Notes: generated from the letters alone by a model not told the origin. A DNA stretch of 64,000 bases from an uncultured Anaerolineaceae bacterium (GCA_964606085.1 CAZSFD010000005.1:19812-83811); one strand, 5' to 3'. Positions 35,048 through 62,864 are shown, numbered from the stretch's first letter. Numbers and translations are program-made.

Positions 35048-35105
35048 AAACGTGAGGCGTGATACGTGAAGACCATCCACGTTTCACGTATCATGCCTCA
35101 CGTTT
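35048..35105. repeat. 23-bp inverted repeat built from CGTGAnn heptamers
   Basis: AAACGTGAGGCGTGATACGTGAA / TTCACGTATCATGCCTCACGTTT, one mismatch (G-U compatible). Confidence 0.85.
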
Positions 35106-35125
35106 CACCAATCACGGAGTTTCCC

Positions 35126-35842
35126 ATGTCCCTTCTCACCCAATACACCCACCAAGTCGAACAATTCGTCGCCGTCTGCCATCGCCTGGCCGATCATCTC
35201 TACGTCACCAGCGCCGGCGGCAACCTGGCCTGGAAGCTGGAACCCAACCTGTTACTGATCACCCCCACGCAGCTCAACAAAGGCTTCGTCACCCCTGATG
35301 ATGTGGTGTTCATTGACCTGAACGGCAAGACCGTCGAGGGCAAACGCCGCCCCACCGGCGAGACGCCCATGTATCTCAAGTTCTTCCACACCCGCCCCGA
35401 CATCGTCTCGGTCATTCACTGCCATGCCCCGCACGTCGGCGCGTTAGCCATCTCGAAGGCCAAAAACTGGCTGATGCGCCCGCTCTACCCCGAAACCACC
35501 ACCGAAGTCGGCCCCGTCCCCGTCGTCCCCTACGCCGAGCCGCTGACCGAAAAGCTGGCCCAGGCCTTCGAGCCATTCTTGCTCAAATACAACAGCTTTA
35601 TCATGGAAAATCATGGCCTGGTCACCCTTACCCGCGGCGGCATCTGGGATACGCTGATGACGGTAGAACTGCTCGAAGGCACGGCCCAATCGCTGCTGCT
35701 CGCCATGTCCGTCGGTGACGTGAAAGAAATCTCGCGCCAGGATGTGGCCGACCTCGACAACGTCATGCGCACGCGCTCGATCCCCTACGTGGGCCTGCCG
35801 GGCGTGAATGCGTCGTTGGAAGCACTGTATTTTGAAGGATAA
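35126..35842 (+). CDS. Class II aldolase/adducin family (FucA-like)
   Basis: SAGGNLAW, ITPT, GETPM, VIHCHAP, MENHG; GGAG RBS before 35126. Confidence 0.88.
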   Translation: MSLLTQYTHQVEQFVAVCHRLADHLYVTSAGGNLAWKLEPNLLLITPTQLNKGFVTPDDVVFIDLNGKTVEGKRRPTGETPMYLKFFHTRPDIVSVIHCHAPHVGALAISKAKNWLMRPLYPETTTEVGPVPVVPYAEPLTEKLAQAFEPFLLKYNSFIMENHGLVTLTRGGIWDTLMTVELLEGTAQSLLLAMSVGDVKEISRQDVADLDNVMRTRSIPYVGLPGVNASLEALYFEG

Positions 35843-35846
35843 TGGT

Positions 35847-35942
35847 GTTCGGCATTCGATAATTCGATAATTCGATATTCGCAATTCGAATACCGAATTA
35901 TCGAATACCGAATACCGAATACCGAATATCCAATACCGAATT
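35847..35942. repeat. Inverted array of 7-8 bp ATTCGnn / CGAATAC units
   Basis: (ATTCGATA)n left arm and (CGAATAC)n right arm. Confidence 0.85.
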
Positions 35943-35946
35943 ACCC

Positions 35947-37245
35947 ATGCTCCCCTTTCCCCCTTTCAACCTCCACTGTCACACCCACTTCTCCTTCAAC
36001 GCCAACGGCTATTCACCCACCGATTTGGTGAAAATGGCAAAGGAAAAGAACTGGTATGCCGTGGGCATCGTGGATTTCGACGTACTCGATGGCGTGGACG
36101 AGTTTCTCTCCGCCTGCGAGGCGTTGGAAATGCGCGGCATGGCTTCCCTCGAAACACGCGTCTACGTCCCCGAATTTGCCACGCGCGAGATCAACTCTCC
36201 TGGTGAGCCGGGCGTGTTCTACTTTATGGGAGTCGGTTTCACCCGAAGTGATCCTGCCCCCGAAGTGGCCGACACCCTCGCCGCCATGCGCCGCCGCGCC
36301 GCCGCCCGCAACCGCCAGATGATCGAGCGCCTCAACGCCCACCTGTCCCCGCTCACCGTAGACTATGACCGCGACGTGCTTTCGCTGACGCCCGCCGGCA
36401 ACGCCACCGAGCGGCACATGCTTAAAGCATATATCCAAAAAGCATATATCCAAAAAGCAGAAGAGCAATTTCAACCACAAAGTATACAAAGGAACACAAA
36501 GGAAAACTTCGTGCCCTTCGAGTCCTTTGTGGTTCGATTGAATGATTTTTGGGCTGAAAAACTGGGCTTGGCGGAAGATCAGATTGCCACGCAGATCGCG
36601 GACTACGCCAAATTCTCCAACACCGTGCGCGGCAAGTTGATGAAACGCGGCGGCGTTGGCTACATCCCGCCCACACCCGAAACCTTCCCCACCGTCGAGG
36701 AAGTCAGCCAGTTTGCCATCGCCTGCGGCGCCATCCCATGCGCCACCTGGCTGGATGGCACTTCTGCCGGCGAGCAAGCCGAAGCCGAATTGCTCGATCT
36801 GCTGATCTCAAAAGGCACGGCAGCGATCAACATCATCCCCGACCGCAACTGGAATATCGCCGACCTTGAACAGCGCAAGCTCAAAGTGCAGAAGCTCTAC
36901 GAGGTGGCGGCCCTGGCGCAACGCCTCGACCTGCCGATCATCGTCGGCACCGAGATGAACGCCCCCGGGCAAAAGCTGGTGGACGATTTCGAAGCCCCCG
37001 AACTGGCCCCCGTGCGCCAGGCCTTCCTCGACGGCGCTGATTTTCTCTACGGCCACACGGTCATGCAGCGCGCCCTCGGCATGGGGTATCAATCGGAGTG
37101 GGCCAAAACAAATCTCCCCACCCGCCGCCAACGCAACGATTTCTACACCCAACTGGGCCGCCGCTTGCAGCCAGGACAGGCTAGTCTCGAAAAATTGCGC
37201 TTTTTACAACCCATATCACCAACAGGAATGTTAGAAAACATCTAA
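35947..37245 (+). CDS. PHP-domain protein (putative phosphoesterase)
   Basis: LHCHTHFS, GIVDFD, GTEMN; carries an AT-rich in-frame insert. Confidence 0.72.
   Translation: MLPFPPFNLHCHTHFSFNANGYSPTDLVKMAKEKNWYAVGIVDFDVLDGVDEFLSACEALEMRGMASLETRVYVPEFATREINSPGEPGVFYFMGVGFTRSDPAPEVADTLAAMRRRAAARNRQMIERLNAHLSPLTVDYDRDVLSLTPAGNATERHMLKAYIQKAYIQKAEEQFQPQSIQRNTKENFVPFESFVVRLNDFWAEKLGLAEDQIATQIADYAKFSNTVRGKLMKRGGVGYIPPTPETFPTVEEVSQFAIACGAIPCATWLDGTSAGEQAEAELLDLLISKGTAAINIIPDRNWNIADLEQRKLKVQKLYEVAALAQRLDLPIIVGTEMNAPGQKLVDDFEAPELAPVRQAFLDGADFLYGHTVMQRALGMGYQSEWAKTNLPTRRQRNDFYTQLGRRLQPGQASLEKLRFLQPISPTGMLENI
36473..36534. mobile_element. 62-bp miniature palindromic element inserted in frame in the PHP gene
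   Basis: Terminal IR AACCACAAAG/CTTTGTGGTT; sister copy at 37244-37306. Confidence 0.7.
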
Positions 37246-37306
37246 CCACAAAGGACACACAGGATCACGAAGACTGTCCTTTGTGTTCCTTCGTGGCCTT
37301 TGTGGT
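37244..37306. mobile_element. Miniature palindromic element (ACCACAAAGG...CCTTTGTGGT) at the PHP stop codon
   Basis: Perfect 10-bp terminal IR, internal ACACAAAG/CTTTGTG-like units; similar length to the in-gene copy. Confidence 0.7.
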
Positions 37307-37323
37307 GAAATTTCGGAGAATCT

Positions 37324-61278: not shown

Positions 61279-61290
61279 ACGATCCTCGCT

Positions 61291-61329
61291 GGTTGAGCCT
61301 GTCGAAACCAGGTCTCGACAAGCTCGACC
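61291..61329. repeat. REP-like hairpin GGTTGAGCCTGTCGA...TCGACAAGCTCGACC
   Basis: 15-bp imperfect inverted repeat in the intergenic region. Confidence 0.7.
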
Positions 61330-61363
61330 GACGAACGCCGTTATCGGTTCATTGGGAGTTATT

Positions 61364-61825
61364 ATGTCAAAATCACGCCCCCCACAAATCCCCGCCTTCG
61401 CCAAAGCGATGATGCAATTTCAGGCCTTTTTGCTGCGCCGTAACTGGATGGGCAAAATGGGCGAAGAGATCATGGTCATCCATGTGACCGGGCGCAAGAG
61501 CGGCAAAAAATACGCCACGCCCATCGGCTACCTGCCTGATGGAGAAGCCATCCTGGCTCTGACCAACGGGCAGAACCCCTCCAACTGGTATCGCAACGCC
61601 CTCAACGCCGCCGAAGTGACGCTGGAGATCAAAGGCCGGCCCGTACGCGCCACAGCCGAAGCAGTCACCGACCCCGCCGAACGCCAGCGCATCTTCGCCC
61701 TCTACCGCCGCGAACGCGTGGCGAACTTCGCCCGGCTTTTTGGCATCCCCGCCGATGCGAGTGAAGCCGAGCTACAGAAGGCGCTCGAAACGCGGCGTTT
61801 TGTGCGCTTTCGACCGGTGACGTGA
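61364..61825 (+). CDS. Deazaflavin (F420)-dependent nitroreductase family protein
   Basis: TGRKSGKKYATP, NWYRNAL; GGGAG RBS before 61364. Confidence 0.85.
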   Translation: MSKSRPPQIPAFAKAMMQFQAFLLRRNWMGKMGEEIMVIHVTGRKSGKKYATPIGYLPDGEAILALTNGQNPSNWYRNALNAAEVTLEIKGRPVRATAEAVTDPAERQRIFALYRRERVANFARLFGIPADASEAELQKALETRRFVRFRPVT

Positions 61826-61854
61826 AACGTGATATATCAAGTGTTTTCATACAG

Positions 61855-61944
61855 CTATTGACACCGCTCCGCGGTGTCAATAGACCTCACACGCTCTGTG
61901 TCGCCTTGACGCGGGGCGTCACGCAAGCCTGACACCGCAGAGCG
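61855..61944. other. Structured intergenic element: perfect 13-bp IR plus nested hairpin
   Basis: CTATTGACACCGC-TCC-GCGGTGTCAATAG; TGACGC-GGG-GCGTCA inside GCTCTG...CAGAGC. Confidence 0.7.
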
Positions 61945-62811
61945 ATGTCAGCAGAGATTTTTATGAACCTCTCCTCCAAAACCGCCCTCGTCACCGGCGC
62001 GACCGCCGGCATTGGCCTCGTCACCGCCCGTGAACTGGCCCGTATGGGAGCGACGGTCGTTGGCGTGGGCCGCAATCCCGCCAAGAGCGCCGCCGTAGCT
62101 GCCCAAATCCGCCAGGAAACCGGCAATGACCGCGTAGAATACCTGCTGGCTGATCTCTCGTCGCAGGCGCAAATCCGCCAATTGGCCGGGCAATTCAAGG
62201 CCAAGTATGACCGCCTGCACATCCTGGTCAACAACGCTGGCAGCTTCTTCTTGAAACGCCAGGTGACCATTGATGGCCTGGAAATGACCTTCGCCCTCAA
62301 CCACCTGAGCTACTTTTTGCTGACCAACCTGCTGCTGGATGTGGTCGAAAATAGTGCCCCAGCGCGCATTGTAAATGTCTCGTCAGGGGCCAATTTTGGC
62401 GGTAAGATCAACTTTGACGATTTGCAGGCCGAACGCCGTTACAGCAATTGGGCCGCTTACAGCCAGAGCAAACTTGCCAACGTGATGTTCACCTACGAGT
62501 TGGCGCGGCGGCTGCAAGGAACCGGCGTGACCGCCAACTGCCTGCACCCCGGTTTCGTCGGCTCCGATTTCGGCAAGAACAACGGCGCAATCTATCGCCT
62601 GATATTCTCCCTGATGAAACCGATGACCGTCACCCCTGAACAAGGCGCACGCACCTCGATTTACCTGGCAACCTCGCCCGATGTCGAGGGCGTCACCGGC
62701 CAATACTTCGACGACCAGCAGCGCAACGTCCCCTCCGCGGCAATTTCGTATGACGAAGCCCAGCAGCAGCGGTTGTGGGAGGTGAGCGAACAATTAATTT
62801 CTGAAGGTTGA
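61945..62811 (+). CDS. SDR, retinol dehydrogenase-like
   Basis: TGATAGIG, NNAG, FALNHL, YSQSKLAN, LHPGFV; start 61945 or 61963. Confidence 0.92.
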   Translation: MSAEIFMNLSSKTALVTGATAGIGLVTARELARMGATVVGVGRNPAKSAAVAAQIRQETGNDRVEYLLADLSSQAQIRQLAGQFKAKYDRLHILVNNAGSFFLKRQVTIDGLEMTFALNHLSYFLLTNLLLDVVENSAPARIVNVSSGANFGGKINFDDLQAERRYSNWAAYSQSKLANVMFTYELARRLQGTGVTANCLHPGFVGSDFGKNNGAIYRLIFSLMKPMTVTPEQGARTSIYLATSPDVEGVTGQYFDDQQRNVPSAAISYDEAQQQRLWEVSEQLISEG

Positions 62812-62864
62812 TTTCTGATTGGGGTTTTATAATCAGCATTCAGCAATCCACAATCAGCAATTCC
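62797..62864. repeat. Degenerate heptamer array (AATCAGC)n with short opposite arm
   Basis: AATCAGC ATTCAGC AATCCAC AATCAGC at 62831-62858; CTGATT at 62815-62820. Confidence 0.6.

Follow-up and report, generated by a model that had tools for sequence, protein, structure and literature searches.

Heptameric repeats of the kind called short tandemly repeated repetitive (STRR) sequences have been known since about 1990. Another class of small bacterial repeat, the repetitive extragenic palindromes and bacterial interspersed mosaic elements (REP/BIME) of enterobacteria and pseudomonads, consists of palindromes with a fixed consensus and a cognate REP-associated tyrosine transposase (RAYT), and is without internal tandem periodicity. 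In cyanobacteria, STRR units are 7 nucleotides (nt) long, fall into several families per genome, lie between genes, and form inverted arrays between co-transcribed genes, with function unknown (PMC2670836). The heptamers GGGAATC and GGGGA(C/T)T that Rehm et al. (2015) described in Xanthomonas and Nostoc prefer aligned open reading frames (ORFs), avoid divergent ones, and follow the same orientation rule as the repeats described below (PMC4692102), and the TAACTGA repeats of marine Beggiatoaceae have been proposed as targets of a post-transcriptional regulator (MacGregor 2015, PMC4679880). An excess of heptamers has been attributed by Mrazek (2007), as cited in PMC4679880 and PMC4692102, to slippage tied to a 7-nt polymerase contact. 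There is neither an agreed origin nor an agreed function for STRR-type heptamers in these reports (PMC2670836, PMC4692102, PMC4679880). Here we report that periodic hairpins of this type are real and genome-wide in an uncultured Anaerolineaceae bacterium, starting from a 64,000-nt stretch of its DNA (GCA_964606085.1 CAZSFD010000005.1:19812-83811; hereafter the window), and that the mirrored arms of these hairpins and their lack of a sense-strand signature argue for an origin at the level of DNA.

The arrays are a new example of STRR repeats, or heptameric long simple-sequence repeats (LSSRs), rather than a new kind of element, and earlier work on other bacteria already covers 7-nt units, hairpins that separate co-transcribed genes, the rule on strands and the idea of slippage (PMC2670836, PMC4692102, PMC4679880). 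As in the STRR of filamentous cyanobacteria, including the hupS-hupL hairpins, heptamers are in excess and belong to several dispersed, mainly non-coding families; inverted, hairpin-forming arrays lie between genes of the same direction. As published for Xanthomonas and Nostoc (PMC4692102), the coding strand is G-rich after stops and C-rich before starts, and divergent gaps are poor in arrays. The likeness to cyanobacterial heptamers that was pointed out in the initial annotation holds. The present case differs in its Chloroflexota host, in its units, in its common 8- and 9-nt periods, in that most of the strong cases are hairpins, and in that the trait is on or off within one GTDB genus. The classical cyanobacterial units are absent among the top unit families listed and the host is placed outside the cyanobacteria, so that the repeats work like STRR without being STRR in the narrow sense.

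The other described systems match in part. Like the Xanthomonas and Nostoc heptamers, some of the arrays overlap stop codons, occur as inverted pairs, and vary in length and sequence between close species; those heptamers belong to a single family that can form G-quadruplexes and favors four units (PMC4692102), whereas here there are many families, most of them (ATTCGAT, CGTGA, AATCAGC) without G-tracts, so that quadruplex formation cannot be the common denominator. The Beggiatoaceae repeats are also intergenic heptamers near start codons with a sporadic phylogenetic distribution, but they have a single unit, are nearly always direct (with one inverted case), and seldom precede a canonical ribosome-binding site (PMC4679880), whereas the present arrays are mostly inverted pairs with a normal frequency of Shine-Dalgarno (SD) motifs downstream. 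With REP/BIME they share the form of short extragenic palindromes after stops, within and at the ends of operons, in hundreds of copies; unlike REP/BIME they are diverse and periodic in sequence, and no specific RAYT was found. Within the same phylum, the heptamer-derived (GATAGRA)n satellites of Chloroflexus aurantiacus are likewise tandem repeats, in the class Chloroflexia and with one unit family; the word "hairpin" does not occur in the main text of that report (Subirana & Messeguer 2019, PMC6749651). The present genome adds a GC-rich Chloroflexota case to the STRR-type repeats.

The genome is a 5.30-Mb draft of 171 contigs with 59% GC, placed among Anaerolineae-type Chloroflexota from the names of homologues, and the window corresponds to C5:19812-83811. 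A simple codon-usage caller gave 4,036 genes covering 88% of the sequence, and the 1,799 gaps of 30-250 nt between them (194 kb in total) were used for tests of periodicity against 50 dinucleotide shuffles. Base identity at lag 7 is 0.283, compared with 0.256 in the shuffles (z=22), and the excess recurs at lags 14 and 21 (z=19 and 20) and, at a lower level, at lags 8, 15 and 22 (z=8, 9 and 6); there is none at lags 5, 6, 10, 12 or 13. The initial annotation had staked its case on an enrichment at lags 7 and 8 over a composition-matched null, and this excess means that its own test fails to refute it. Strict arrays, in which an exact 5-mer is repeated at least three times at a fixed period, number 137 in the gaps at period 7 (0.4 expected), 69 at period 8 (0.2 expected) and 22 at period 9, and there are 0-1 at periods 4-6. 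When four copies of a 4-mer core are counted over the whole genome, periods 7, 8 and 9 give 919, 462 and 83 cases, and only 1 and 3 are found at periods 5 and 10. The proposed shared unit length of 7-8 base pairs is thus right for the dominant periods and too narrow for the 9-nt ones. Chance or an artefact of composition might be suspected, since several of the sites first listed hold just two units, but these counts have already refuted it, and with z values of 19-22 at lags 7, 14 and 21 and 137 period-7 arrays where 0.4 is expected it has virtually no chance of being correct. Even the two-copy form of one family, GAAGGTT, occurs in 80 windows genome-wide and in none of the shuffles.

The unit families are numerous. 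The output of Tandem Repeats Finder (TRF) holds 181 canonical 7-nt units, and the top families have 20-59 arrays each. The most abundant are AACCTTC, AACGAAT/AATATCG, AATCAGC and ACGCATC/AAACGTG, and these are the four sequence classes originally recognized in the window; the idea of a shared geometry with different letters also stands. Units of 14 and 16 nt, a higher order of repetition expected if slippage is at work, are detectable among the arrays. The abundant period-8 families TCACC(N3) and GGTGA(N3), for example at 39985-40021, show a likeness, perhaps fortuitous, to the anti-SD sequence at the 3' tail of 16S rRNA and to the complement of that sequence, an extended SD.

Folding of 1,791 gaps revealed a strong structure, defined as one at least 10 kcal/mol better than shuffles, in 65% of the convergent, 31% of the co-directional and 10% of the divergent gaps. 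The arms are periodic at 7, 8 or 9 nt in 121 of the 526 strong hairpins (about 4 in an arm-shuffle null), and 106 of the 121 sit in co-directional gaps. In these 106, the foot of the stem lies a median of 3 nt past the stop codon, in keeping with the stop-codon location first proposed, and the other foot a median of 20 nt ahead of the next start. Loops measure about 6 nt and each arm carries 2 to 14 copies of the unit. Among co-directional gaps of 50-119 nt, 13-17% contain strict arrays, compared with 3 of 132 convergent gaps of the same length; such arrays are 10-fold denser outside called genes (0.40 per kb) than inside (0.038 per kb). The 173 arrays counted as coding are an upper bound, because long ORFs filled with arrays may be spurious: those at C1:246211-248317 and C3:70421-72436 (3.0-3.4 kb) are full of C-rich arrays, even hairpins, and may be either spurious, with frames that stay open because the C-rich repeats lack stops, or genuine proteins of low complexity. 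Arrays often cross the stop codon and thereby give species-specific C-terminal tails; the ARMT1-like protein ends in ...IQFVTTNNEFRLS here and in ...IQFVKP in the related metagenome contig L023, and the C-terminus of a TIM-barrel protein is SHPIT* here, and an array supplies RGKGAKGQS* there. This distribution shows that arrays accumulate where they are least harmful, namely in untranslated sequence after a stop and ahead of the ribosome-binding site of the next gene in the same direction, and sometimes in the last codons.

The arrays are also oriented. The 5' arm has more G than C in 83 of 97 informative hairpins, with 14 opposite, and genes on the two DNA strands do not differ in this. Over the full set of arrays, those near starts have more C than G (81 vs 8) and those near stops more G than C (60 vs 31). 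A rule based on the content of stop codons in the 5' arm (73 vs 40 arms with a stop) was rejected as weaker than, and confounded with, the G-over-C rule. The periodic hairpins are not intrinsic terminators, since the U-tract is absent: in only 5% do the 10 nt that follow the stem include at least six T, and none of the periodic sites of the window appears in the list from a terminator-like scan. Convergent gaps hold ordinary A-stem-T terminators, such as two back-to-back at 57507-57558 (AAAAAGCCCCCGG...CCGGGGGCTTTTT), which indicates that this organism also employs conventional intrinsic terminators besides its periodic hairpins. No part of the 64-kb window reaches the gathering score of any Rfam 15 family.

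Two comparisons bear on whether the palindromes arose as DNA or were selected as RNA. Positions that vary between neighbouring units still pair across the arms in 88.9% of cases, compared with 48% in a null where the partner unit is another variant from the same arm; the two arms are therefore unit-by-unit mirror copies rather than two independent arrays of one family. The second comparison relies on the fact that a hairpin selected as RNA should accumulate G.U pairs and be more stable in its sense fold than in its antisense fold. The comparison of sense and antisense folds replaced a count of G.U against A.C pairs, which a control with convergent gaps showed to be biased by the folding program. 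In the 106 co-directional periodic hairpins, the sense fold is the more stable in 52 and the less stable in 53, with a mean difference of -0.08 kcal/mol and 98 vs 75 G.U pairs (p=0.09). In 251 non-periodic co-directional hairpins, by contrast, the sense fold is favored 158 to 92, with a mean of -1.9 kcal/mol and 261 vs 118 G.U pairs (p=2e-13). RNA-level selection is detectable on the non-periodic hairpins and not on the periodic ones, and the former serve as an internal control that argues for a DNA-level origin of the latter. Taken together, mirrored arms and the absent strand signature argue that the palindromes were made and corrected as DNA, and were not RNA stems preserved by selection.

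The same test is one obstacle to reading the hairpins as selected intercistronic RNA structures, be they stabilizers against 3' exonucleases, RNase III processing sites, or devices for translational coupling or re-initiation. Such roles would account for the precise placement of the two feet, for the hairpins at seven consecutive junctions of one operon, for the persistence of two of these (J1 and J3 below) across four genomes while both arms change sequence, and for an orientation rule that follows transcription rather than DNA strand; transcript stability or translational coupling has also been suggested for cyanobacterial STRR hairpins (PMC2670836). Yet neither sense-strand stability nor G.U pairs are in excess, genes downstream of arrays have an ordinary frequency of SD motifs (39% vs 44% for other genes, p=0.35), genomes of the same genus run the same operon with hairpin-free junctions of 0-13 nt, and two of the junctions (J2 and J5) are empty in a closer relative. 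An RNA-level function as the reason for these hairpins is thus unlikely. A hairpin-assisted re-initiation or "shunt" was rejected on the normal SD frequency and the absence of a sense-strand bias. Any function, whether stabilization of mRNA or insulation of cistrons, would be secondary and is unproven.

The operon in question (34.2-43 kb of the window) is conserved and encodes two aldolases, PHP, alcohol dehydrogenase (ADH)-like, TIM-barrel, ARMT1-like, SDR and HAD proteins. In two genomes of the same genus, G002 (70% amino acid identity) and G001 (62-64%), the orthologous junctions are array-free and consist of overlaps or 0-13 nt, apart from one spacer of 61-62 nt in each and a 25-nt spacer in G001, none of them periodic. 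Strict period-7/8 arrays occur at 7.8 per 100 kb in the present genome, and none was found in 178 kb of G002 or in 120 kb from each of two genomes of the same family. Four TTCG cores at period 7 occur 134 times here and are absent from the two congeners, and none of 40 relatives has more than 5 cases; presence and absence within one GTDB genus, albeit from counts of this one family, provide a comparative handle on the cause. Three metagenome contigs, L023, L024 and L025, whose orthologues are 76-82% identical in amino acids, do carry hairpins at the same junctions. At J1 these are always heptamers with a CGTG core, in differing variants and copy numbers, and J3 always has the 9-mer AACCAC... 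element; at J2, J4, J6 and J7 the unit families differ between genomes, and L024 is the contig in which J2 and J5 are empty. The AATCAGC, GAAGGTT and CGTGA families are common to this array-rich clade. Judged from these comparisons, turnover of the arrays between relatives is rapid, and orthologous junctions can be traced as arrays are gained, replaced and lost. The protein database contained no relatives with 83-99% protein identity. Beyond these genomes, heptamer arrays in general are widespread: when 185,579 species genomes were scanned for five TTCG cores at period 7, matches came from many phyla, with Verrucomicrobiota, Acidobacteriota, Bacteroidota, Planctomycetota, Cyanobacteria and Xanthomonas among the matches listed.

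The explanation that we favor on balance is generation at the DNA level by slippage and template-switch mirroring, toleration at gene junctions, and a filter on orientation near start codons. The arrays are STRR-type LSSRs of a few dozen families, mostly with 7-nt units and in fewer cases with units of 8 or 9 nt, and replication slippage would create them and alter their copy number. Intrastrand template switching or hairpin-primed copying would make and maintain the mirror-image palindromes, and a whole module may now and then be copied to another junction. Finally, a constraint at the level of expression would fix the orientation, with the G-poor arm placed next to the start codon. The initial annotation had left open a generative mechanism or a structural role; mirrored arms, the missing sense-strand signature and fast turnover favor the former, and a structural or RNA role found no support in the tests run.

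Copying between junctions is indicated by L023, in which a single module, GCGTGTAGCGTGTTCCGTT-loop-AACGNAACACGCTACACGC, is present at J1, J2 and J4 with similar loops at two of these. The same module is an argument for non-autonomous mobile hairpins (REP/BIME-like or resembling miniature inverted-repeat transposable elements, MITEs), spread by a transposase or by gene conversion, with the tandem units as a by-product of element structure. A mobile origin would also suit a 9-periodic element, AACCACGGAAC...GTTCCGTGGTT, which has conserved ends, varies hardly at all in its 3' arm over at least six loci, and occurs in L023 and L025 as well, and the genome does contain clearly dispersed non-periodic palindrome families. 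Empty sites are found in G001, G002 and L024, with boundaries blurred by the repeats; defined ends are seen only in the 9-periodic AACCACGG family. However, in most periodic hairpins neither the length nor the ends nor the loop is fixed, copy number per arm varies from 2 to 14, target-site duplications are not evident, and 429 of the 526 strong hairpins are singletons at 80% identity. Furthermore, the only gene with a Y1 transposase domain encodes a conserved protein of about 550 amino acids shared with array-free relatives. Mobility is therefore an improbable explanation for the arrays in general.

Among the periodic hairpins, one element is the strongest candidate for genuine mobility. This 9-periodic AACCACGGAACACACGGAATACACGGAAAA-loop-TTCCGTGTATTCCGTGTGTTCCGTGGTT sequence, found on contigs C73, C22, C84, C46, C31, C76 and C81, has defined ends and an almost invariant 3' arm, often abuts a TAA stop, and is an exception to the G-first rule in that its C-rich arm comes first.

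A search for candidate machinery, in which Y1 transposase, MutS and reverse transcriptase were compared with array-free relatives, found none, and the co-occurring nuclease or polymerase envisaged at the outset did not materialize, the three being alike in array-rich and array-free genomes. The single match to PF01797 (Y1 transposase) is weak and lies at G000:C102:11199-11555 in an open frame of 572 amino acids. Proteins of about 520-630 amino acids with such a weak domain occur in many genomes of the family and order, including the array-free G001, G002, G004 and G005, and a RAYT/Y1-transposase link was rejected because the sole PF01797 protein is long, conserved and also present in these relatives. 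Loss of mismatch repair was likewise set aside, as MutS1 is apparently present, in a copy that a contig end truncates, and the MutS2-like genes do not differ from those of relatives, and so was an extra reverse transcriptase, the counts being not above those of the array-free G001, G002 and G004 (G005 has none).

Several points weigh against the favored account of slippage and mirroring. It offers no reason for periods of 7-8 to the exclusion of 5-6. A small number of unit families (AATCAGC, GAAGGTT, CGTGA) recur at dozens of loci that are not linked and are found in related genomes too, which pure local slippage does not predict. Pairing shows no gradient from loop to foot that would mark where growth occurs, and growth at the loop was rejected on this ground. 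Nor are the arrays hypermutable on a short time scale: over 19 kb with 8 arrays, identity to four further assemblies of this population is 99.98-100%, and the copy numbers are unchanged in all, so that the strain-level polymorphism looked for as a check did not appear. The gap statistics, moreover, rest on gene calls from a crude caller. Finally, the units consist of a conserved 4-5-nt core with 2-3 variable bases, and a conserved core could mean a partner that reads the sequence.

This last feature invites the view that the arrays are binding sites, with a protein such as an S1-, Csp- or CsrA-type regulator reading the 4-5-nt core at 7-8-nt spacing on single-stranded nucleic acid; one arm also lies close to the start, as in the Beggiatoaceae TAACTGA case (PMC4679880). 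Since dozens of unrelated cores coexist in one genome, cores are swapped at orthologous junctions, and most are buried in stems, binding sites are a very remote prospect. It is conceivable, if rather doubtful, that an active DNA-level process restricted to this lineage, driven by an unrecognized enzyme, writes 7-9-nt units symmetrically on both arms of palindromes at gene junctions and copies entire modules from one junction to another, having been switched on after the split from the array-free relatives of the same genus. In that case the responsible gene should be findable by comparison of array-rich with array-free sisters, and such a process could underlie the 35-year-old puzzle of cyanobacterial STRR as well as the heptamer arrays in many phyla.

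The sites in the window are collected in Table 1, with the operon junctions numbered J1 to J7.

Table 1. Periodic repeat sites in the window (positions counted from its first nucleotide; MFE, minimum free energy; energies in kcal/mol, with values for shuffles after "vs")
Site	Position	Strand	Units and placement	Further properties
J1 hairpin	35045..35108	+	5' arm CGTGA(N2-3) x3, 3' arm TCACG(N2-3) x4; reads ACGTGAGG-CGTGATA-CGTGAA ... TTCACGT-ATCATGCC-TCACGTTT; begins 10 nt past TGA stop (35033-35035), next start 35126	arms 26 nt, 92% complementary; MFE -44 vs -23
J2 hairpin	35844..35945	+	ATTCGAT(A) x5 then CGAATAC x8; occupies 104-nt gap from aldolase gene to PHP gene	39 pairs, -47.5 vs -21.3; TRF period 7/8, scores 51-89; orthologous junction in G002 is 3 nt
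J3 hairpin	37245..37306	+	9-periodic AACCAC... family; overlaps TAA stop	24 pairs, -37 vs -22; family at same junction in L023, L024, L025 and at least 6 other loci of the genome
J4 hairpin	39024..39116	+	ATTCGNN x4 then NNCGAAT-type units; overlaps TGA stop 39025-39027	
J5 one-sided array	39985..40046	+	C-rich, 8-periodic; TCACCYNN x5, then CCCCTCTC-like	encodes final residues SHPIT* of upstream protein, extends to next start codon; TRF period 8/16, strict array
J6 palindrome	41262..41305	+	CGAATAA/CGAATTT units, perfect over 17 nt	arms 100% complementary; 5' arm encodes species-specific C-terminal tail TTNNEFRLS* of ARMT1-like protein (aligned with L023, G002, G001)
J7 hairpin	42127..42188	+	ATTCGAT/CGAATAA units; overlaps TAA stop 42126-42128	arms 25 nt, 80% complementary; 24 pairs
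prmC site	47774..47842	-	G-rich CGTGA-type arm across prmC start codon; CACGCAT x3 inside gene	TRF 100% match, 3.1 copies; fold -36.4, z=-1.9 (modest)
Small hairpin	51894..51932	+	GAAGGTT/AACCTTC, 2 units per arm; 19 nt past TAA stop	
Direct repeat	53449..53464	+	GAAGGTT x2, without partner arm; TGA stop within repeat	weak alone
Degenerate units	56665..56691	+	GAAGGT-like, within gene 3' end overlapping next start codon	weak
Direct repeat	59508..59536	+	TCAAAGG x2, close to gene start	weak
Two units	61815..61836	+	CGTGA(AA)CGTGA at TGA	weak; upstream ORF not called by gene caller
Array	62812..62861	+	AATCAGC x4.4, directly 5' of next start codon	TRF score 41; partial GCTGATT-like opposite arm 3' of stop codon

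Of the 12 sites listed initially, seven are solid (J1, J2, J4, J6, J7 and those beginning at 51894 and 62812). The prmC site is a real array, but it lies across a start codon rather than at a stop; its CACGCAT units encode about residues 11-18 of PrmC (LTHHASR), and the Pfam PrmC_N match starts at residue 10. The four sites marked weak in the table have two copies or are degenerate; the families to which they belong are in excess across the genome, GAAGGTT pairs included. The list was also incomplete, having missed the 9-periodic hairpin J3 and the one-sided TCACC array J5. The claim that the tightly coupled operon at 3-22 kb is free of such repeats was correct and can be extended, in that TRF and the strict-array scan found no array anywhere in 1-35 kb; the junctions of that operon are mostly overlaps or shorter than 15 nt.

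For annotators of metagenome-assembled genomes of Anaerolineae, it is of practical importance that arrays rewrite C-terminal tails, inflate ORF calls and break assemblies. Two irregularities of other kinds were seen in the orthologous regions. Within the iron-dependent ADH (Fe-ADH) orthologue at L016 2443-2527 (G002:C46), a run of about 48 G is followed by 20 nt and then 18 C, which is probably an Illumina poly-G assembly artefact. At L019 1116-2348 (JGI 3300043177), from the same population, the ARMT1-like gene was called in two pieces of 223 and 179 amino acids owing to a single base difference in 6,189 nt, and may be a pseudogene allele or an assembly error.

Two further palindromes in the window are not periodic arrays. 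A short perfect hairpin at 34173-34210, GTAGGGCGGAAT-TAAT-TTCGCCCTAC, starts at a stop codon and has REP-like GTAG...CTAC ends; it is kept with changes in L024, and L023 has a 9-periodic AACCACAAAGG hairpin instead. At 5780-5870, within the gap 5673-5880, lies a non-periodic dispersed palindromic element, GCCTAACCCGCGAACTCCTTGCACAAAAACAAG...CTGGATTAGTGCGCTGGTCGTTCCGC, with at least 10 copies in the genome, which looks MITE- or REP-like because its copies occur in co-directional, convergent and divergent gaps alike.

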